A program made the translations under genes and the position numbers. Of a stretch of DNA of 64,000 bases, positions 3,431-63,840 are shown piece by piece (the first letter of the stretch is position 1; every line of letters begins with the position of its first letter). The stretch is from Deltaproteobacteria bacterium (GTDB lineage: Bacteria; Desulfobacterota; Syntrophobacteria; BM002), in the NCBI GenBank assembly GCA_037384945.1, contig JARRNM010000024.1, positions 5,297 through 69,296 of the forward strand. Direction: 5' to 3'. A model generated the notes under the pieces. That model searched no databases, was not told the DNA's origin, and saw only the letters and a program-made list of their open reading frames with translations.

Positions 3431-4879
3431 TCAATCCTCTGAACCAATCTCCTCTTCTTTGGGCAGAATGTGAGTTGAACTGCCGAGGAAGGCACCAGCA
3501 GCCTCCTCCTCGGTTTCCGAGAGAGTTGGATGGGGATGAATGCTCAGGGCAAGGTCTTCAGCCAATGCACCCATTTCCACAGCCAAGACCCCTTCCGAGA
3601 TCATTTCTCCGGCTTCTCGGCCCACAATACCCATGCCGAGCACACGTTCCGTTTCAGCATCGACGATGATCTTGGTCATGCCGCTGGACACCCCCATGGA
3701 AGCGGCGCGCCCTGAGGCAACCCAGGGAAAGCGAGATATCCTGACAGAGCGGTTTTCTTTGCGGGCGTTGTCTTCCGTCAGACCACACCAGGCGATTTGC
3801 GGATCGGTATAGACCACCGCCGGAATCGCTCTGACATCAAATGCCGAGGGTTTGCCTGCTATTACCTCGGCCGCCACCTTTCCCTCGTACATGGCCTTGT
3901 GGGCCAACATGACCCCGCCGACCACATCACCTATGGCATAGAGGTTCTTCTGGGCGGTTCGCTGCTGCTGGTCAACCAGCACAAAACCGCGTTCGTCCAC
4001 CTCGACTTTGGTATTCTCCAGGCCAAGATCTTCGGAATTTGGTCGCCGCCCGATGGCTACCAGTAGGCGGTCGAAAGTCTGTGTCGTACCGTCCGCGTCT
4101 CCTTCCAGAGTGACTTTCACTCCGGCACCATCTTCTTCGACACCTGTTACCTTGCTGTTGAAATATATGGTCTCGAAAAGACCTTCCAGCCGTTTTGCCA
4201 AGTTCTCTACAAGATCTCGATCCGCTCCGGGCATGATTCCATCCGTCATCTCTATGAGGGTGACCCTGCTGCCTAAGGAGGCGTAAACGGATCCCAACTC
4301 CACGCCAACGTAGCCGCCGCCAACCACTAAAAGTCTCTCGGGTATTTCCTCCAATGTGAGAGCTCCGCCGGAATCCATGATTCTGCCACCTGGCTTGAAC
4401 TCAGTTCCCGGTAAAGGTATTGGACGGGACCCGGTAGCAATAACGGCGTGTTTGAAGCTAATGTGGCTCACATCGCTCTCGGTGTCAAAGAGGCGGACGT
4501 GGTGGGGGTCTTCAAATCCGGCCCTGGCCTGGATGTATTCGACTTTGCGCTTTTTGCTCAACTGAGCGAGCCCTTTGGCCAGTTTGTCCACCACCTGATC
4601 CTTCCACTCACGGAGACGGAGGAGATCCACCTGGGGCTGGTTGAAGTCCAACCCCATTTTTTCGGCACCTTTGACGTCGTGGAGTAATTCGGATACATAG
4701 AGCAAGGCTTTTGAGGGAATACATCCGCGAAAAAGACAAACTCCGCCGGCTCTGGGCTCCATGTCCACTATGGTCACTTCCAAACCCAGATCGGCTGCAC
4801 GGAATGCTGCGGCATACCCCCCGGGGCCCCCGCCGATTACCAGAACCTCAGTTTCCTGGGTGAACTCTCCCATTACCAT
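3431..4879 (-). CDS. lpdA: dihydrolipoyl dehydrogenase (E3)
   Basis: GGGPGGY FAD-binding motif, redox disulfide GGVCLFRGCIPSK, and a second GGGYVGVE NAD-binding motif. Last gene of the 2-oxoacid dehydrogenase operon. Confidence 0.95.
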   Translation of the reverse strand: MVMGEFTQETEVLVIGGGPGGYAAAFRAADLGLEVTIVDMEPRAGGVCLFRGCIPSKALLYVSELLHDVKGAEKMGLDFNQPQVDLLRLREWKDQVVDKLAKGLAQLSKKRKVEYIQARAGFEDPHHVRLFDTESDVSHISFKHAVIATGSRPIPLPGTEFKPGGRIMDSGGALTLEEIPERLLVVGGGYVGVELGSVYASLGSRVTLIEMTDGIMPGADRDLVENLAKRLEGLFETIYFNSKVTGVEEDGAGVKVTLEGDADGTTQTFDRLLVAIGRRPNSEDLGLENTKVEVDERGFVLVDQQQRTAQKNLYAIGDVVGGVMLAHKAMYEGKVAAEVIAGKPSAFDVRAIPAVVYTDPQIAWCGLTEDNARKENRSVRISRFPWVASGRAASMGVSSGMTKIIVDAETERVLGMGIVGREAGEMISEGVLAVEMGALAEDLALSIHPHPTLSETEEEAAGAFLGSSTHILPKEEEIGSED

Positions 4880-4922: not shown

Positions 4923-5334
4923 CACACAGAGCACAAAGGTCACAAAGGATAAACGATAGAGATCGTTAAAGTCGTTAAAGTCGTTGAAGTCGTTAAAGTC
5001 GTTGAAGTCGTTGAAGTCGTTGAAGTCGTTGAAGTCGTAAACGGTAAACGGTAAACCGTTGAAACTATTCCTTTCTCAGGTCTAAACTTTGAACTTGGAA
5101 CTTTGAACTTGGAACTTGAATCCTCCGACCTCCGACCTCTGACCTCCGACCTCTGACCTCCGTCCTCTGTCCTCCCGCGTCTGTCCTCTGTCCTCTCACC
5201 TCGTCTCGCTCGACATCCCGTCTCGTCTTACTCCATGCTCTATGCCCTATGCCTATGTCACAACGGACCACGGACCACGGACAACTGACACTCAACGGTT
5301 TCTACGATTTCAACGATTTCAACGGCTGTATCGT
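4923..5334. repeat. intergenic word-chain repeat region between E2 and lpdA
   Basis: About ten different tandem word modules in series (see finding 1). Confidence 0.95.
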
Positions 5335-9313: not shown

Positions 9314-11734
9314 TTATTCAACCATCTCCCCCAAAACCAGTTCAACGGCAGAGCCGGCCTCGAGATCGTAGGTTTTTTCCTTGAAACCAACCTTGATGGG
9401 CATCTCTGTGCTCTTCAAGGTACGCACCTGCAAGCGATCTGAGGTCACTTCCACCTCCAGAGCGTGGCCTCGGTAGCGAATATGCACGTGGAGTTTTGCC
9501 ATTTCCTCCGGCAAACACGGGTTAAACCAGAGTACGTTGTCACGGGGCTCGATACCGGTATAACAGTGGGTAATCAGGTCAACAGTGCCCGCCATGGCTC
9601 CCAGGTGGATACCTTCCGGCGTCGTTCCCCCCTGAATATCCTCAATGTCGCTTTTCAAGGCCTCGCAAAAGAATTTCCAGGAACGAATCCGGTCCGAGCG
9701 AGCAAGGACCCATGAATGTACTACCCGACTGAGGGTGGAACCGTGTGAGGTTCTCCTTAGGTAATAATCTATATTCTTGGGTATAGTCTTGTACTCGAAA
9801 GAATACCCCAGCTGATTAAAGAGCTTTTGCAGTTTCTCCGATGAGAAGAGATAGAAGAGCATGAGCACATCTGCCTGCTTTGAGGCTTTGTAGCCGTTAG
9901 GGGTATCGTCTTCCGCCTCCAGGACGCGATCCAACCTTTGGATATCTTTATATTTCCGGCGATAGCCTTGCCAGTCAAACTCCTCGAGTTTGTCGTAGCC
10001 TTCAAATTGACTGATGATACCTTCACCATGGAACACCAAACGCATTTTCCTGCTTATTTCTCGCCATTTCTCAATTTCCTCCTGACGGAGGTCGATGCTT
10101 TCGAGGAGTTCCCTGGAACGCTCCTCCGGCAAGATTCCGGGTATCTCCAGGGCACGGTTGAACACCCACACTGCCATGAGGTTGGTGTAAGCATTGTTGT
10201 TCAGGCCCGGTTGTTCCCCTTGCGGGTAACCGTCATGGTATTCGTCCGGGCCCATAACCCTCAAGATTTCGTAACGATCCATCTCAGAGTTGTAGGTTGC
10301 TATGCTGGCCCAGAAACGGGCTATCTCCAAAATCATCTCCGCTCCATAGAAGGAGAGGAATTCCATGTCCCCGGTAACCTCGTAGTAATGCCAGACATTG
10401 TAGGCAATGGCTGAATTCACGTGGCGTTGCAGGTGAGAGTTGTCAGGGAGCCATCGTCCAGATTTAGGATTGAGATGAACTTCCTGGGTTTCTTCCCGGC
10501 CGTTGCTGCCGCTTTGCCAGGGAAACATGGCGCCAGAATATCCAGCCTTTTTGGCAGCAAGGCGAGCCCGGTCTAGGCGGCGAAAGCGGTACATAAGTAA
10601 TGATCGGGTGATTTCCGGAAGACGGAGGTTCAACATGGGGAAAACAAACAGCTCGTCCCAAAAGACGTGGCCGCGGTAAGCCTCACCGTGCCAGCCCCGG
10701 GAGGGCACTCCCACGTCAAGGTCCATGGTATGGGTGGACGTTGTCTGGAGCAAGTGAAAGATGTAGAGGCGGAGGATAATTTCGGTGCGGTCGCTTTCCT
10801 CCGGCCTCCTGTGAACAAAATCTACCTCGAAGCGACGCCAAAGATGCTCCCAGGACCGGGCGTGGCTCTCCAGCAGCCCCTCGAAGGAGCCGGCGCGGGC
10901 CACAGCGTTGTGTGCTTCTAGGCCGCCCTCGGAGATGGCTTTGTCCCGGGAGGTGAAAAAGGTAACTATTTTTTCGATGCGGACCTGGGCGCCCTTTTCT
11001 AGGTGAACGAGAAATTCCTGGAAGATGCGTCCGGGCTCCTTAAGACAGCTTTTTAATCGCTGATGAGGTTGACCGTGCAGAAACACTCTCGTCCGGGCGC
11101 CCTGGGCAATGGTTAATTTTGACTGCTTGGTCAGCACTTTTAGATAAATGGTTTCCTCGTCCACTTCTTCGGTTATCAGGGGTTCCAGGTGGTTGCTGTT
11201 CAGCTCCTTGTAGCGGTCCACGCCTTGATTTGTCACCAGGCCGTCCAGTCCGGAGCGGATTTCCAGTTCCCCCGACCAGTTTTCCGCTGTTAGCCGCATT
11301 TCCAGGGCAGCGAGATGCTTGTCGGCCATATGGACCAACCGCCGCTCCTCTACGTTGGTCTGTCTCCCCTGGTGGTCACGAAAACTGATGGTTCTGAGGA
11401 GGATACCACGGCGCAAGTCCAGTTCCTGGCGATAGGAGAGAATCTCCACCTCCTTAAGGGAAAACCAGTCGGATCCAGGTAGTCGAAAGGTAAGGGGTAA
11501 CCAGTTGGGCATATTTACCAGATCCTCGTTTTCAATGACCCGCCCGGCGATTTCCGTGTCCAGCCGGTTATAACCACCGGCAAGGTAGGTACCTGGATAG
11601 TGCACTCCATCCGCCACGGTTTCAGTTCCGGCTCCTCTGGTGGCGAAGTAACCATTGCCCAGGGTGCACAAGGCCTCTCGCAGCCCTTCCTCTCGAGGAT
11701 TGAATCCATGGTATACTAGCGACCACCGGCTCAT
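9314..11734 (-). CDS. glycoside hydrolase family 65 phosphorylase (trehalose/kojibiose/maltose-type)
   Basis: 806 aa. The N-terminus LGNGYFATRGA and the overall architecture are typical of GH65. Its start overlaps the stop of the upstream beta-PGM/T6PP gene by 4 nt (ATGA). Confidence 0.9.
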   Translation of the reverse strand: MSRWSLVYHGFNPREEGLREALCTLGNGYFATRGAGTETVADGVHYPGTYLAGGYNRLDTEIAGRVIENEDLVNMPNWLPLTFRLPGSDWFSLKEVEILSYRQELDLRRGILLRTISFRDHQGRQTNVEERRLVHMADKHLAALEMRLTAENWSGELEIRSGLDGLVTNQGVDRYKELNSNHLEPLITEEVDEETIYLKVLTKQSKLTIAQGARTRVFLHGQPHQRLKSCLKEPGRIFQEFLVHLEKGAQVRIEKIVTFFTSRDKAISEGGLEAHNAVARAGSFEGLLESHARSWEHLWRRFEVDFVHRRPEESDRTEIILRLYIFHLLQTTSTHTMDLDVGVPSRGWHGEAYRGHVFWDELFVFPMLNLRLPEITRSLLMYRFRRLDRARLAAKKAGYSGAMFPWQSGSNGREETQEVHLNPKSGRWLPDNSHLQRHVNSAIAYNVWHYYEVTGDMEFLSFYGAEMILEIARFWASIATYNSEMDRYEILRVMGPDEYHDGYPQGEQPGLNNNAYTNLMAVWVFNRALEIPGILPEERSRELLESIDLRQEEIEKWREISRKMRLVFHGEGIISQFEGYDKLEEFDWQGYRRKYKDIQRLDRVLEAEDDTPNGYKASKQADVLMLFYLFSSEKLQKLFNQLGYSFEYKTIPKNIDYYLRRTSHGSTLSRVVHSWVLARSDRIRSWKFFCEALKSDIEDIQGGTTPEGIHLGAMAGTVDLITHCYTGIEPRDNVLWFNPCLPEEMAKLHVHIRYRGHALEVEVTSDRLQVRTLKSTEMPIKVGFKEKTYDLEAGSAVELVLGEMVE

Positions 11735-13297
11735 TGCTCTTCTCCCTTCACCCTAGAGGCAAGTTTTTGCAGAAACTCACCAACCTCGTGCGGATCTGCC
11801 AGCTGGTATTGAGCTTCGGTTTTGGGGGAACCTTTCGCCACCAAAATGGTGATGCCCCGGTCCTTGAGCGCTCTGAAACCGTCTTCATCGGTGGTGTCAT
11901 CGCCGATGTAGAAGGGCAGAACATTGGCTTGATTGAGCTCCAGCTCGTCCAGCAGCCAGAGGAGGGCTTTTCCCTTGTGCCAATCGAGGTTGGGCTGCAG
12001 TTCAAAGACCTTCTTTCCCGAGGACTTATGCAAATCCGGACAGTTCTCCAGCACCCGGTCAACAGCGGCTTCCACCCGGCCGATGTTGTCTTCGGCCACC
12101 TTGCGGTAGTGGGCGGCAATGGAAAACTTCTTTCGTTCCACCAGAGCACCGGGAATGCTCTGCAGCTGGCTCTGCAGCCCTTGCTCGGCTCGATCCAGAA
12201 CTGGAAGAAATTCTGCGGCTTTCTGGGCTTCCTTACGCTCACCACCAGGACCGGCTATATCGAAACCATGGCTGCCGGCGTAGTAGATGGAGTCGATGTC
12301 CACCAGTTGTCGCACATCCTTTAAGTCCCTGCCACTTATGATCCCTACGGTGCAGTACTTGGCTAATTGTTTTACGGTATGGCGCATCTCTTTGGAGAGG
12401 ACCGCCAGTTCAGGGCTACTCACAATTGGGGTCAAGGTGCCGTCGTAATCAAGAAAAACTGCCATCCTTTTGTTTTTAGCCCTCCGTCTAATTTCAGCCA
12501 TTTGTTCCAGAGGAGAGGGCAAAGATGATGTCTCGCTGTTGGACTGAGCCGCCACTTTGATTTCCGCCAGGTCCTTCACTACCACGTGTGCGCCGCTTTC
12601 TTTCAAGGCTGCGGTTTGCTCCTCTCTGTCCACGCCGATAACGCAAGCAAACTCTCCCCTCTTACCAGCTTCGACGCCGGCGATGGCGTCCTCGACCACA
12701 ATAGCACGGTTGGGGTTTACTCCGAGTCTGCGAGCGGCTTCGAGGAACATATCGGGAGCGGGCTTTCCTGGGAGATTAAGCTCGGCGAGATCCACTCCGT
12801 CAACTTTGGCCTCGAACAGGTGAGTGAGCTTTGCCGCCTCCAATACGGCAGCACAATTCTTACTGGAGGAGGCCACGGCCGTCTTGAGATTGTTGCGGCG
12901 GAGGGCATGAATCAGATCAACGGTGGATTGGAAAACAGGAGCCCCGTTTAAGTAGATCATTGAACAGTTCATTCTTGCGGTTGCCCAGACCGCAGATGGT
13001 TTCCTTTCCTGGGTCGTCGTCGGGGTCACCGTAGGGAATGTTTATGGAGCGAGCTTGCAGAAAACTCTCAACCCCATCATAGCGAGGCTTGCCGTCCACG
13101 TAGCGGCGGTAGTCTTCAGTGCGGTCGAAGGGTTGGTAGGACCTGCCTTCTCGTTCACCCCGTTCCTTCAGATATTCGTCGAACATCTGTTTCCAGGCGT
13201 CGGCATGCACTTCAGCGGTTTTGGTAACCACGCCATCCAGATCGAAGATTACTGCGTCGTAAGTGGAAGGATTGATGGTGAAGCCCGGAGTCGTCAT
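11731..13297 (-). pseudogene. beta-phosphoglucomutase (HAD) fused to trehalose-6-phosphate phosphatase, interrupted by a +1 frameshift
   Basis: ORF 12917..13297 carries FDLDGVV and ends inside the HAD cap. ORF 11731..13029 continues the same domain in another frame (KTAVASSS, VEDAIAGVEAGK), followed by a TPP domain (FLDYDGTLTPI). Confidence 0.8.
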
Positions 13298-13312: not shown

Positions 13313-13499
13313 TTAGCCCGGATGTTTCATGAATGACTTGCTGCGACCGTGGATATGGCCGTCCTTCCGTGCGTCCTCGGGTGTCGCACCCTGCGACGTA
13401 CCGTTCAGGTACGGTTCGGGTCCGACACCCTGCGGTTGCCCGGTGGCACTCCCATCTTCACAGTCTCGCGACAGCAATTCATGAAACATCCGGTGCTAG
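13313..13499 (+). repeat. copy A of a ~180-nt structured element (candidate ncRNA or MITE)
   Basis: The termini pair over ~22 bp (CCGGATGTTTCATGAAT ... ATTCATGAAACATCCGG plus a TTAGC/GCTAG extension). There is an internal hairpin CGTACC-GTTCA-GGTACG and a conserved core CCCATCTTCACAGTCTCGCGAC. Confidence 0.7.
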
Positions 13500-26682: not shown

Positions 26683-27060
26683 CGGGAAGGCACGGACTTC
26701 GGCGAGCTCAGTCGAGCCGTGGCCTGCCCGCCATCGCGAGCCTGCTCGCTCAGGCGAGGCGGGCGGGGGGATTTTGCTGCCCACTGTTCGCTGTTAGCCG
26801 TCAGGGTGGCCGACTCTACTTCCTAAATCCCAAATCTTTACCCTGTGGAATCCCCCGTAGGGGGTCCGCCGGAGGTGGAATTCCACAGGGCAGGTCCGCA
26901 ATCCACAATCAACATTCTGTCCTCTGTCGTTTGTCCTCTAACCCCGTCTCGCCCGTCTCGCTCGACGTCTCGTCTCGTTTTACTCCATACCCTATGCCCA
27001 GTGACAGCGAAGCGCAGTGACCCAATGAGGCCGGAGGCAAGTGACGCGAAGCACTAGCTA
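26683..27060. repeat. intergenic word-chain repeat region
   Basis: A long GC hairpin (GGCGGGAAGGCACGG...CCGTGGCCTGCCCGCC), then TGTCCTC, CGTCTCG, TTACTCCATACCCTATGCCC and GTGAC(A/G)CGAAGC words. Confidence 0.85.
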
Positions 27061-31166: not shown

Positions 31167-31450
31167 GTCGGCGGGGAGGGTCGCCCGCCCTACAGTAGGG
31201 CAGCCCACCGTGCCTGCCGCTGAGTCAGTTGTCCTTGATCAGTGGTCCGTTGCAGAAAAACAGCGAGACGAGCGAGACGAGAATCAGAGGTCGGAGGTCG
31301 GAAGTCAGAGATCAAATCGTCAACTAGTCGAATGGTCAAATAGTTCTGAATGGCCTCAGCGGCAATCTAATGGTTTGACTATTCAATCATTTGACCATTT
31401 GACTAATCGACCAATTGACTTCTCTGTGGTCTCCGTGGGCTCTGTGGTTT
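31164..31450 (-). repeat. composite word-chain element, inverted copy of 6705-6986
   Basis: In reverse complement it is collinear with 6705-6986: CCACAGAG, GTCAATTNGTCGATTAGTCAA, ATGGTCAAA, ATTNGCCNCTGANGNNATTCAGAAC..TTTGACC, CGTCTCGCTCGTCTCGC, CAACGGACCAC, GGACAACTGAC. Confidence 0.85.
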
Positions 31451-31479
31451 AAATAATCAACACCACAGGGAGGATAGTA

Positions 31480-34261: not shown

Positions 34262-34770
34262 TCAGGTCAAGGCGACACGGTGACAGGGAGACACGGAGAC
34301 GCGGCGATTAGAGATCAGCTGGCAGATTCCAGCGTGCAGCTTGCAGGGCAGGCCACTGTGCCTGCCGCTACATGTCAGTTGTCCGTGGTCAGTGGTCCGT
34401 TGCCACAAAGCGATTATGAATCGTGTTTTTAGATTGAAACCACGCCGGGATGGCGGGGACAGTGCCCCGCCCTACGGCACAAATCCCAAATCCCAAGCAC
34501 CAAATCCCAAACAAATTCTAAATCACAATTCTCCAATGTTCAAAACAGTGTCGTAGAAACCGCAGAAGTCGTAGAAATCGTATAAGTCGTCAATTCAGCT
34601 CACAGGAAGCTTGTCATCTGATCTCTGACTTCCGACCTCCGACCTCTGATCCTCGTCTCGCCCGTCTCGCCCGACCTCCCGTCTCGCCTTACTCCATGCC
34701 CTATGCCCAGTCCCCCATCTCATTTAAAAATCAGCATTTCTGAACCGACAAATCAGACTCCCTCCTATTG
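34262..34770. repeat. intergenic word-chain repeat region
   Basis: GACACGG words, two GC hairpins, AAATCCCAAATCCCAAGCACCAAATCCCAAAC, GTCGTAGAAA words, CCGACCTC words, CGTCTCGCC words and TTACTCCATGCCCTATGCCC. Confidence 0.9.
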
Positions 34771-37639: not shown

Positions 37640-38248
37640 ATGAAATTAACCACCCAGGGGAATTCGCGAGTCTATCAGTTCAAGATAGTGCTGGATGGAA
37701 TTAAGCCTTTGATATGGAGACGAATACAGGTCCCGGGAAAATACTCATTCTGGGACCTGCACGTGGCCGTCCAAGATGCAATGGGTTGGCAGGACTATCA
37801 CCTCCATAGATTCGAAATCCCTGACCCGCTGTCGGGAGTGAGAACAACCATAGTGAGCTTTCCGACTGAGGCGTCCAAAGGGAACAGTAAATTTTTATCA
37901 GGATGGAAGGTTAAGATGGGCCATTATTTTACCATGGCAAACAATAAGGCGTGGTACGCCTATGACTATCTCTACGACAATTGGAATCACAGATTAACCC
38001 TAGAAGGGATATTCCCGAGAGAAGAGGGGACCGGGTATCCCCTTTGCCTGGACGGCAGGCGAGCCTCCCCTCCGGAAGACTGTGGCGGGGTGCAAGGGTA
38101 TTACAGGCTTCTAGGAAACATCAACAGACAAGATCAAAAGCACAAATCAAGATTGGCCGGCGGAGCCTACGACCCGGAAGCGTTAAACATTGATGAAATC
38201 TACTTTGACAACCCCGCAAGGCGGCTAGATCTCTCCTTCAATAGATAG
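37640..38248 (+). CDS. pRiA4b ORF-3-like family protein
   Basis: YQFKIVLDGIKPLIWRRIQVPGKYSFWDLHVAVQDAMGWQDYHLHRFEI is the hallmark N-terminal signature of this family. Confidence 0.8.
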   Translation: MKLTTQGNSRVYQFKIVLDGIKPLIWRRIQVPGKYSFWDLHVAVQDAMGWQDYHLHRFEIPDPLSGVRTTIVSFPTEASKGNSKFLSGWKVKMGHYFTMANNKAWYAYDYLYDNWNHRLTLEGIFPREEGTGYPLCLDGRRASPPEDCGGVQGYYRLLGNINRQDQKHKSRLAGGAYDPEALNIDEIYFDNPARRLDLSFNR

Positions 38249-42127: not shown

Positions 42128-42327
42128 AGTTCAAATCCGTTAGTCAAATCGTTGAAACCGTTCAAGTCGTAAAAGTCGTAGAAATCGTTCAAGTCGTAGA
42201 AATCGTAGAAATCGTCTATTTAGCTCACAGCTCACAGGGGCAAAACTGCCGAATAACGAATAACTAATAAGGGATAACGACACTGCGAGCTGCCAGTTGC
42301 CAGCAGCGAGCTGTCTTCCGTCGGCTG
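42128..42327. repeat. intergenic word-chain repeat region
   Basis: GAAACCGTTCAAGTCGTAAAAGTCGTAGAAATCGT (near-identical to nt 60-95), AGCTCACAG words, AATAACGAATAAC words, GCTGCCAG words and TGTCCTC. Confidence 0.9.
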
Positions 42328-42804
42328 TCATCTGTCCTCTGACTCCCCACCCTCTTCAGGTGGAACTTGGATTGACAGCACCGGACAGGGGGCCATTCTT
42401 ATTACCTTTTCAGCCACAGAGCCGAAGAGAAAGCGTCGCCAGCCCGTAAGCCCATGAGTTGCAATCACAATAAGGTCTGCATTAACCTTATGGGCGGTGG
42501 TGACGATTTCATCAGCAGGGTTTCCAAGGACGACCATCTTGCGTGAAGTGATCTCAGCTGCAACCCTTCCCAGCGCAACTTTATCCAGCGATTCATTGGC
42601 CGTGGCTTCTATCTCCTTGAGATATGAAATGCCAACGGCCCCCGCAGGTGCGTCGTAGGCGGGTAAGAGCGGGACTGGGGGTATTGCGTGTACAAGAATA
42701 AGTTCGGCAGAGAAATGCAAAGCCAGTTCAGCAGCTGTACTTAAAGCCTCGTAGGATGCGTCACTGAAGTCGGTGGGCCAGAGAATCCTTCTCAAAGGCA
42801 ACAT
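42328..42804 (-). CDS. universal stress protein (UspA family)
   Basis: ILWPTDFSDAS ... IVIATHGLTGWRRFLFGSVAEKV. Confidence 0.85.
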   Translation of the reverse strand: MLPLRRILWPTDFSDASYEALSTAAELALHFSAELILVHAIPPVPLLPAYDAPAGAVGISYLKEIEATANESLDKVALGRVAAEITSRKMVVLGNPADEIVTTAHKVNADLIVIATHGLTGWRRFLFGSVAEKVIRMAPCPVLSIQVPPEEGGESEDR

Positions 42805-50231: not shown

Positions 50232-50239
50232 TAAGAATA

Positions 50240-50384
50240 GCGGATTTCGCCATTGGTTATCGGGTTCTATGGAGTTTCTCAGTAAATTTTCATTCCGCAG
50301 TATGTATGCCGCGATCGGCAAGCGTCGATCTGGGGGCACGCCCATCTTCATGGTCTCGCGACAGTAATTCACGAAATATCCGGG
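50240..50384 (+). repeat. copy B (degenerate) of the ~180-nt structured element
   Basis: The 3' part CACGCCCATCTTCATGGTCTCGCGACAGTAATTCACGAAATATCCGG matches copy A. The 5' arm GCGGATTTCGCCATT pairs only partially. Confidence 0.55.
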
Positions 50385-50433
50385 CTAAATGAACAATACC
50401 TTCGCACCTTGTTGGCGCCAAGGAGATTATCAC

Positions 50434-55523: not shown

Positions 55524-55798
55524 GCCTAACCTCCTTCAGAGGAAGCCGTTCAATCGTTCGGTTTCGGCGAACTCGTTCTAACCGTTCAAATGATTGAAAT
55601 CGTTAAAAATAAAGTAGCCAGTAGCCAGCAGTCAGTAGGTAAGAAAAAAGACTCTTGCCTCCATCTTCTGGATTCTGAATTCTCTGCGTTTTCCTAAATT
55701 CGAAATTCTAAGTCCGAAATTCAAAATTGTTTTCTGTCTTCTGTCCTCAGTCGTCTGTCCTCCGACCTCTGACTTCCGTTATCCCTGGTCTCCGTGGT
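55524..55798. repeat. intergenic word-chain repeat region inside pilus cluster
   Basis: CGTTCAA/CGTTGAA words, GTAGCCAGTAGCCAGCAGTCAGTAGG, TCTGGATTCTGAATTCTC, CGAAATTC words, TGTCCTC words and CCGACCTCTGAC. Confidence 0.85.
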
Positions 55799-62962: not shown

Positions 62963-63622
62963 CTAACCCACATTTTTCGCGAAACGGCGTCGCGAGACTG
63001 TAAAGATGGGCGTACCACCGGGCAACCACAGGGGGTTGGATCCAAGACGTACTTGAATAGTACGTCGCAGGAGCCGACACCCGAGGACGACCGTAAGGAC
63101 AGCTATATCTGCAGTAGCAACAGGCGATTCGTGAAATATGTGGGTTAAGTTCAAATAGTCAGGACAAGAAACTTCTGAACCTTCACACCCCTCGCCCTGC
63201 TCACGACAGAATCTCGAGCGGAGAACTCGCGTTGCCTCTCCATAAGTGCCGGTGGAGATAACGCTGACACACATGTAAGTGCCGCCCTCCACCTCGCAGT
63301 TGCCATAAGAACAATAGGAGTCTGAGGCTATGGTGAAAGTCCCGCTGCCAAGAGTCTTCTCCGCTTCAATTGAGTTCCAGCAGCGAAGGTCACTGAGGTA
63401 TTTGCCAGCCCAATTAATTCCCGCCTCTGCCACATAAAAGGCGCTGGTTGATTGAGCCGTAATCGGCACTGACTTTTGCTTGCTGGCCATCATACTTACC
63501 ATGGAGTAACCAATGGCAGACAGTACCAGCATGACGAAGACTACAACCAGCACCGAAAAGCCTCTCTGACCCCTCAGTAGCCCCAGTAGCCCATTTGTCT
63601 CTTGCTCACAGGTTTGTTTCAT
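62963..63622 (-). CDS. PilX-like minor (pseudo)pilin; C-terminal ~61 codons read through element copy C
   Basis: QRGFSVLVVVFVMLVLSAIGYSM ... SAFYVAEAGINWA matches the PilX N-terminal domain. The stop TAG sits at the last bases of the element. Confidence 0.6.
   Translation of the reverse strand: MKQTCEQETNGLLGLLRGQRGFSVLVVVFVMLVLSAIGYSMVSMMASKQKSVPITAQSTSAFYVAEAGINWAGKYLSDLRCWNSIEAEKTLGSGTFTIASDSYCSYGNCEVEGGTYMCVSVISTGTYGEATRVLRSRFCREQGEGCEGSEVSCPDYLNLTHIFHESPVATADIAVLTVVLGCRLLRRTIQVRLGSNPLWLPGGTPIFTVSRRRFAKNVG
62964..63147 (-). repeat. copy C of the ~180-nt structured element (inverted relative to copy A)
   Basis: Termini TAACCCACATTTTTCGCGAA / TTCGTGAAATATGTGGGTTA pair. Hairpin GACGTACT-TGAAT-AGTACGTC. 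Core GTCGCGAGACTGTAAAGATGGG is the reverse complement of the copy A core. Confidence 0.7.
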
Positions 63623-63649: not shown

Positions 63650-63840
63650 CGTTGTTTGTCGTCTGCTGTCCGTTGTGTAAATGGCATAGAGCATAGGGCA
63701 TGGAGCATGGAGTAAATACAAAATCCTTCACTCTATGCTCTATGCCTCGCCAAATCCGCGATCCGAAATCCGAAATTCTGTCCTCTGCCAGCTGCCCGCT
63801 GCTTCCTGCCAGCTCGCAGTTCCCTTGCGCCTTGTGCCCT
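63650..63840. repeat. intergenic word-chain repeat region
   Basis: GTCCGTTGT words, inverted then direct CTATGCC words, AAATCCGAAATCCGAAATTC, TGTCCTC, and CTGCCCGCTG / CTGCCAGCT words. Confidence 0.85.

Follow-up and report, generated by a model that had tools for sequence, protein, structure and literature searches.

The repeats that we studied, present as two full-length copies and one relic in the window (the whole 64-kb stretch of DNA analysed here), are very probably examples of a non-coding 180-bp MITE with TA as insertion site, found in uncultured Syntrophobacteria. They bring together small size, lack of coding capacity, terminal inverted repeats (TIRs), a target duplication, dispersed copies and filled/empty polymorphism. 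The element is a new family of a well-known kind, and neither a new RNA gene nor a new class of elements; its partner transposase may well be of the IS630 type. It resembles a structured RNA because it is an imperfect palindrome over its full length, able to fold as DNA or as a read-through transcript. The original prediction had proposed either a structured RNA or a DNA element that needs hairpins, such as a MITE. The TIRs, the TA duplication and the empty sites uphold the second possibility, whereas the first fails for lack of any strand asymmetry.

Copies of the element in the window

The 22-nt core CCCATCTTYAYRGTCTCGCGAC, predicted to be shared by three copies named A, B and C, occurs exactly three times in the window and in none of 100 shuffles (Table 1). 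Copies A and C, which have a G+C content of 54-61%, are in inverted orientation with respect to each other and 77% identical over 178 nt. Copy A matches the family profile with 193.7 bits (nhmmer, model positions 1-178) and the covariance model with 189.5 bits (positions 1-180); the corresponding scores for C are 161.8 and 154.4 bits. Both had been correctly located and recognized as full copies of approximately 180 nt, although their true ends lie a few nucleotides inside the limits first proposed (13313-13499 and 62964-63147).

Copy B had rightly been described as degenerate. However, its homology with the element is restricted to 50330-50385 (model positions 125-180; nhmmer E = 2.5e-13), and the rest of the predicted interval 50240-50384 has no detectable similarity to it. 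The preserved part is directly followed by a TA (50386-50387) and matches the TIR with one mismatch. A possible decayed 5′ end was matched by neither nhmmer nor the covariance model; in the MFE fold of this copy, a weak closing helix of 12 bp is formed with TAGCGGATTTCG (50238-50249), and the fold is not more stable than that of shuffled sequences (z +0.44). Copy B is a decayed relic. Searching the window with the covariance model added no copy to those already known.

Table 1. Coordinates of the copies, their parts and neighbouring features in the window
Feature	Position	Strand	Remarks
Copy A, full length	13316-13496	+	181 nt; one extra T at 13494 relative to the consensus
Left TA of the target-site duplication of A	13314-13315	.	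Read from sequence
5′ TIR of A, GCCCGGATGTTTCATGAAT	13316-13334	+	Exact match to the family TIR consensus
3′ TIR of A, ATTCATGAAACATCCGGTGC	13477-13496	+	From sequence and family ends
Right TA of the target-site duplication of A	13497-13498	.	Read from sequence
Copy B, 3′-terminal 56 nt only	50330-50385	+	Model positions 125-180
Possible decayed 5′ end of B, TA + GCGGATTTCG	50238-50249	+	Weak, not significant
Copy C, full length, divergent variant	62966-63145	-	180 nt; 77% identical to A
TA at the 5′ side of C (minus-strand sense)	63146-63147	.	Read from sequence
TA at the 3′ side of C	62964-62965	.	With G62963, TAG stop of a read-through ORF
22-nt core in A, B and C	13451-13472; 50341-50362; 62989-63010	+; +; -
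HAD/beta-phosphoglucomutase + trehalose-phosphatase fusion gene	11731-13297	-	First gene of the operon, GH65 phosphorylase next
Tandem-repeat arrays (examples)	4971-5290; 26914-26998; 31224-31451; 34373-34726; 42148-42357; 55696-55794; 63650-63800

Distribution, length classes and conservation

A scan for the core motif over one genome per prokaryotic species retrieved 94 stretches, usually several per genome, all of them from MAGs labelled Syntrophobacterales, Syntrophobacteria, Deltaproteobacteria, Desulfobacterota or Desulfobacteraceae. The complete chromosomes CP070689, CP070692 and CP070843 carry the element. We then trained an HMM on 46 canonical copies; in 710 kb of retrieved loci it detected 134 non-overlapping copies or fragments, of which 76 are full length. 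When the seeded copies are left out, the density is approximately one copy per 20 kb. The element had no blastn match among PLSDB plasmids, and no viral contig in IMG/VR contained the core motif. We did not find an earlier description of this family in the literature, which is not proof that none exists.

The modal length is exactly 180 bp, shared by 43 of the 80 copies for which both ends could be located. These 180-bp copies read GCCCGGATRTTTCATGAAT ... ATTCATGAAAYATCCGGGC at their termini, and their TIRs, bounded by TA, are of the GCCCGGAT... type. Longer classes comprise copies of 190-191 bp, in which the palindrome CCCGCGGTACCGCGGG replaces a short stem segment, copies of 229 bp, which in five genomes have an identical 49-nt insert at one and the same position, and copies of 350-370 bp in which heptamer-repeat inserts are nested. 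Shorter copies of 70-142 bp are deletion derivatives that have lost internal sequence and retain both ends, and solo ends keep their termini as well. Conservation in eight copies that had not been selected via the core is highest in the TIRs (0.92-0.95), and that of the core (0.87) is close to that of the rest of the element. The invariance of the 22-nt core in the alignment is due to searching with it, and we rejected the core as a specially conserved functional site.

We also scanned metagenomes for the arm variant found in copy C. Among the matches listed, most were chance 16-mers and the only real one came from a locus orthologous to that of copy C: positions 151-246 of metagenome contig L126 correspond to window positions 62966-63145, with the same flanks, and hold a C-type 96-nt deletion derivative that is inverted relative to these flanks. 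Copy C may represent a mobile subfamily, or its arms may have been compensated in place.

Target site and mobility

The element is flanked by TA on its 5′ side in 69 of 80 copies and on its 3′ side in 69 of 80. Position -3 is Y in 66/80 and position +3 is R in 71/80, beyond which the flanks are random. Mobility is shown by filled and empty sites, independently of any parent IS. Each full copy was removed in silico and the joined flanks were searched, which yielded the filled/empty pairs L011/L092, L046/L021, L063/L037 and L084/L085; the comparison of orthologous segments added a fifth one, filled in L021 (5159-5526) and empty in L046. A single TA is present at the junction in four of these five empty sites. 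The fact that L021 and L046, which share approximately 97% identity, carry reciprocal insertions, each missing in the other, implies that movement is recent.

The extent of the duplication can be read from the terminal bases. The first and last bases of the element are complementary in 52 of 59 copies and base -3 equals the last element base in only 29 of 59, indicating that the G/C termini belong to the element and that the duplication is TA. The same two counts rule out a 4-bp YTAR duplication of the IS5-like kind. The first element base equals the +3 flank base in 41/59 copies, compared with approximately 30 expected, so that a 3-bp TAR duplication is possible. Whether the first base is G or A correlates with the +3 base (A goes with A in 10 of 12 cases), a correlation that a simple 2-bp TA duplication does not explain.

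Some junctions are less clear-cut. At some junctions the flanks adjacent to the insertion are more diverged than distal flanks. Directly 3′ of the insertion site in L011, positions 2291-2310 resemble the 5′ TIR of the element (GCCTGAATGTTTCGAC), and a TIR-like stretch is also present at the “empty” site of L092; this stretch differs more between the two genomes than the distal flank does. An older solo end may be present at the site, or a deletion may have produced the “empty” state. The copy at L021 5159-5526 is 368 bp long, contains a nested heptamer-repeat insert and is flanked by CC...GG(GA) instead of TA...TA, and its empty counterpart in L046 (around 4933-4938) has TA. On its right the flank is GGGA, complementary to TCCC on the left, as if copied across the hairpin. 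In approximately 11 of 50 copies, the element abuts an ORF in such a way that the duplicated TA and the first G or A of the element make a TAG or TAA stop; insertion into stop codons would regenerate a stop.

Folding and covariation

Whichever strand is taken, copy A forms a single long and imperfect hairpin (-97.6 kcal/mol, z -7.6, and -104.3 kcal/mol, z -8.8), and copy C reaches -73.2 kcal/mol (z -5.4). The whole element is an imperfect palindrome, giving a rod-like hairpin of approximately -70 to -100 kcal/mol from either strand. What had been described as a closing helix corresponds to the pair of 19-nt TIRs, with the duplicated TA outside. Direct reading of both copies bore out that the arms of this helix differ between A and C, each with a matching 3′ arm, and that the internal hairpin pairs CGTACC with GGTACG in A and CGTACT with AGTACG in C.

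The covariation noticed between these two copies persists across 46 copies from many genomes. In their alignment, which comprises a rod of 71 pairs, 92.7% of the cells are standard pairs and 32 of the 71 pairs are doubly changed, as compared with 13.1 ± 2.0 in column shuffles and with 7-13 pairs in a control where partners were slid by 1-3 columns. Clear alternative states are found at pairs 9/174 (AT 18, GC 14, AC 8, GT 3), 36/148 (GC 24, AT 14), 56/128 (GC 29, TA 10), 76/107 (TA 17, CG 13, CA 14), 78/105 (CG 36, TA 8) and 89/95 (CG 37, TA 8). The 19-nt TIRs (helix 1) are paired in 94.7% of cells, and about half of their departures from the consensus are compensated on the opposite arm. Compensation in the terminal arms is visible in many single copies, for example GTCCTCATG / CATGAGGAC in L023, CGTATA / TATACG in L045, GGTTG / CAACC in L012 and L021, and CCCACAT / ATGTGGG in copy C of the window. 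Parsimony on NJ trees counts at least 93 Watson-Crick type switches over 37 pairs, a rough figure because trees based on 180 nt are unreliable. Approximately 17 mismatched positions are retained in nearly all copies, implying that the arms are not simply being homogenised.

Part of this covariation is inherited within subfamilies, and part could come from both ends having to fit one transposase; neither explains the compensation in the internal stem. Compensation along the stem exceeds what plain TIR conservation explains. It could be caused by selection for a foldable single strand or for transposition competence, by selection on read-through RNA in both orientations, or by hairpin-templated (quasi-palindrome) correction. 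In going beyond the textbook picture, the compensatory changes along the whole stem suggest that the palindrome as such is maintained. We nevertheless consider it rather unlikely that this maintenance, beyond the transposase-binding ends, is an active one, an idea based on the recurrent double changes along the 85-bp stem, on the fixed set of mismatches and bulges that is kept, on the orthologous copy that is inverted in place and on the copy whose flanking dinucleotides have been changed in a complementary manner. Were it so, the element would be a TA-duplicating MITE with a hairpin-dependent step, in which single-strand folding would be needed to move or to be tolerated. Alternatively, the host would exploit the hairpins of read-through RNA, or hairpin-templated repair would make such MITEs “self-correcting”. 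The recurrent arm-to-arm compensation offers a tractable data set on the persistence of long palindromic MITEs.

RNA, protein or other kinds of mobile DNA

A multicopy family of structured non-coding RNAs (small RNA genes or cis-regulatory leaders), with the hairpin as functional fold, would account for the strong folding (z -5 to -9), for covariation that is real, and for the location of copy A directly upstream of a start codon and of B and C upstream of genes. An RNA transcribed from only one strand is expected to tolerate G·U and to avoid A·C. However, both strands of the element fold equally well, and when pairing was scored by geometry and in a strand-neutral way, with the 5′ half aligned to the reverse complement of the 3′ half, we counted 2,859 Watson-Crick cells, 233 G·T and 285 A·C, with four consensus positions for each kind of mismatch. 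This balance of G·T and A·C indicates that no strand is favoured. The copies have no preferred orientation relative to the flanking ORFs either: 13 are sense between co-directional genes (+,+), 16 antisense (-,-), 12 between divergent genes (-,+) and 9 between convergent genes (+,-), and some are placed inside ORF ends. Neither a sigma-70-like promoter nor an intrinsic-terminator motif was found in or beside A or C. No known RNA family was recognized: Rfam 15 gave zero matches in the whole window at gathering thresholds and only noise (E ≥ 0.87) for the element at E ≤ 10. Since the TA duplication and the filled/empty sites are, moreover, those of inserted DNA, an RNA family appears highly improbable. 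A small protein of 58-60 aa has practically no chance of being the product of these repeats, even if the consensus contains an open frame of 60 codons that has been annotated by gene callers more than 1,100 times and yields a 60-aa translation matching at least 1,140 clusters of “hypothetical proteins” (58-104 aa), without exception from the same clade. Variability by codon position (0.112, 0.076 and 0.110) has no third-position excess, insertions of 10, 11 and 49 nt break the frame in common variants, and amino-acid identity is not above nucleotide identity. We rejected the protein-coding reading on this absence of codon periodicity and on the common frame-breaking indels.

Among mobile DNAs, a single-strand hairpin element of the REPIN/RAYT or IS200/IS605 PATE-like kind, whose folded DNA hairpin would be recognised and moved by a Y1 (HUH) transposase, would account for the conservation of pairing rather than of sequence. 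The compensatory changes that recur along the whole stem would fit such an element, as would the inversion relative to the flanks at L126, the ortholog of the copy C locus, and the one copy with a complementary flank change (CC...GG). The REPIN/RAYT and IS200/IS605 families make no target duplication and lack true TIRs; they have subterminal hairpins instead, and an associated Y1 transposase. In our element, by contrast, TA...TA flanks 69 of 80 copies, empty sites have a single TA, true TIRs are present and the termini are the part most conserved in sequence; with no Y1 transposase among the scanned neighbours, we regard this origin as very unlikely. It is also unlikely that the element is a MITE served by a transposase of a family other than IS630 that targets TA-containing sites, for instance IS5 (IS427 or IS1031-like), with a duplication of 2-3 bp. 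The YTAR context of the flanks and the excess of first bases identical to the +3 base (41/59, including A with A in 10/12) would agree with an IS5-type partner, whereas the covarying terminal bases (52/59 complementary) favour a 2-bp TA, the 4-bp YTAR duplication is rejected, and the searched loci contain no transposase of any family that would decide the matter.

Proposed transposition mechanism and search for the transposase

For a TA-inserting MITE with an IS630-type partner, we propose that a transposase supplied in trans would bind the 19-nt TIRs and move the element by cut-and-paste. Integration takes place at TA, preferably within YTAR, and duplicates the TA. IS630/Tc1-mariner elements are known to insert at TA and to duplicate it (PMC2170065). 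The assignment to an IS630/Tc1-mariner-type transposase would follow from the TA duplication, a signature of such transposition that is not unique to IS630. The compensatory changes reflect a requirement for matched arms and not a strand-specific RNA function.

We found no autonomous IS with matching TIRs in the window or in the 8-kb neighbourhoods of the MITE copies (94 loci), and no obvious transposase in the window. The 16 ORFs located beside lone ends are ordinary genes according to Pfam, including those for PfkB kinase, DUF362, acyl-CoA dehydrogenase, SHMT, transketolase and a sigma-54 activator; none of these 16 encodes a DDE_3 or HTH_Tnp_Tc3 transposase, and no Y1_Tnp domain was detected among the scanned neighbour ORFs. 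TA-flanked inverted repeats with the termini of the element and spaced by 700-2500 bp were only the ends of separate MITE copies and enclosed no IS, and the IS-sized repeats revealed by all-against-all blastn of the loci were only orthologous segments. This absence of a partner is weak evidence, because only 8-kb neighbourhoods were covered and MAGs assemble IS elements poorly.

Two other features came to light during this search. L027 (548-2734) and L038 (877-3063) have perfect inverted repeats of at least 60 nt, approximately 2.2 kb apart, which consist of heptamer-type units and are unrelated to the MITE. In the window, positions 37640-38248 (+) encode a 202-aa plasmid pRiA4b ORF-3-like protein (PF07929, E = 3.5e-50), also unrelated to the element.

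Comparison with known repeats

Correia elements, like the element described here, have a TA target duplication. These repeats (CREE/NEMIS) of Neisseria and the ERIC repeats of Enterobacteriaceae are non-coding, approximately 105-157 bp long, TA-flanked and provided with TIRs; upon co-transcription they adopt long hairpin structures, and they frequently lie at the ends of genes (PMC3184786). Our element is likewise a small non-coding repeat with TIRs, TA flanks and a long hairpin. In contrast to both, it is longer, palindromic over its full length and found in another host clade, and it has no evident IHF site or promoter; its sequence seems unrelated to theirs, as judged without alignment. More generally, classic MITEs are smaller than 200 bp and have TIRs, target duplications, very stable RNA folds, ORF fusions and filled/empty sites, the stable folds and ORF fusions having been reported for Chunjie, Nezha, ERIC and Correia (PMC3184786).

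The Chunjie MITE of Geobacter uraniireducens measures 178-235 bp, has 21-bp TIRs and RNA folds of approximately -98 to -130 kcal/mol, is A+T-rich and flanked by 9-bp direct repeats, and overlaps protein genes in some of its copies (PMC3184786). The two elements have in common a deltaproteobacterial host, a similar size, a stable fold and overlap with genes. They differ in base composition (54-61% G+C in ours) and in target duplication, and a 2-bp TA instead of 9 bp implies a different transposase family. Nezha of cyanobacteria and RUP of pneumococcus have TIRs, short direct repeats and very stable structures, and their mobility was deduced from filled/empty sites; the partner IS of Nezha, with matching TIRs, is ISNpu3 (PMC3184786). 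Our element resembles them in its TIRs, its stable fold and the way in which its mobility was inferred. The partner IS of RUP is IS630-Spn1. Unlike Nezha and RUP, for which an IS partner has been identified, our element had none in the 8-kb loci. Finally, REPINs, which are REP doublets mobilised by RAYTs, are intergenic mobile DNA that is abundant, forms hairpins and keeps its pairing (PMC3116915). They have no target duplication and depend on RAYTs, whereas our element has a duplicated TA and TIRs conserved in sequence.

Genomic neighbours and consequences for annotation

Copy A sits between a divergent gene pair. The ATG of the HAD and trehalose-phosphatase fusion gene (13297, - strand) is 19 nt away from the first base of the copy, and the 18 nt in between hold the Shine-Dalgarno. 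Copy A lies in the 5′ leader or promoter region of the trehalose-related operon; if the promoter were located beyond the element, the leader would carry a hairpin of approximately 180 nt. Copy C is flanked by a PilX-like ORF and by a small MerR-like ORF, which itself precedes pilM/N-like genes. The upstream PilX-like ORF (63622 to 62963, - strand) reads through it and ends at a TAG made of the right-hand TA and the following G. The relic B is upstream of a DHH phosphoesterase gene. The copies may influence their neighbours through mRNA stability or translation, and a hairpin of -70 to -100 kcal/mol beside start or stop codons is predicted to be able to alter expression.

The at least 1,140 database clusters of “hypothetical proteins” mentioned above are translations of the element, and where an ORF reads through a copy, as the PilX-like one does at copy C, it acquires a spurious tail. 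A model of the family would clean up the annotation of Syntrophobacteria MAGs. At about one copy per 20-25 kb the element probably also breaks MAG assemblies, and several copies are found at contig ends. Since insertions differ between genomes that are 97% identical, they are useful strain markers.

Other differences between related sequences were observed on the way. Window positions 12945-12949 have AAA versus AAAAAAAA in the near-identical JGI contig L095, and this 5-nt difference splits the 523-aa HAD + trehalose-phosphatase gene into ORFs of 126 and 432 aa; either a homopolymer error in the assembly or a genuine frameshift may be the cause. L059 (1564-2102) and L072 (around 3823-3828) differ by an insertion or deletion of 538 nt in loci that are otherwise 92-96% identical. 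Many intergenic regions of the window are occupied by dense arrays of short tandem repeats with periods of 7, 9 and 14 nt, examples of which are included in Table 1. Their units, GACCTCC/GACCTCT, AAATCCC, CTCTATG/CCCTATG and GTCGTTGAA, occur in direct and inverted orientation across the window. These arrays resemble the STRR repeats of cyanobacteria, and similar heptamers are nested inside some MITE copies of other genomes.
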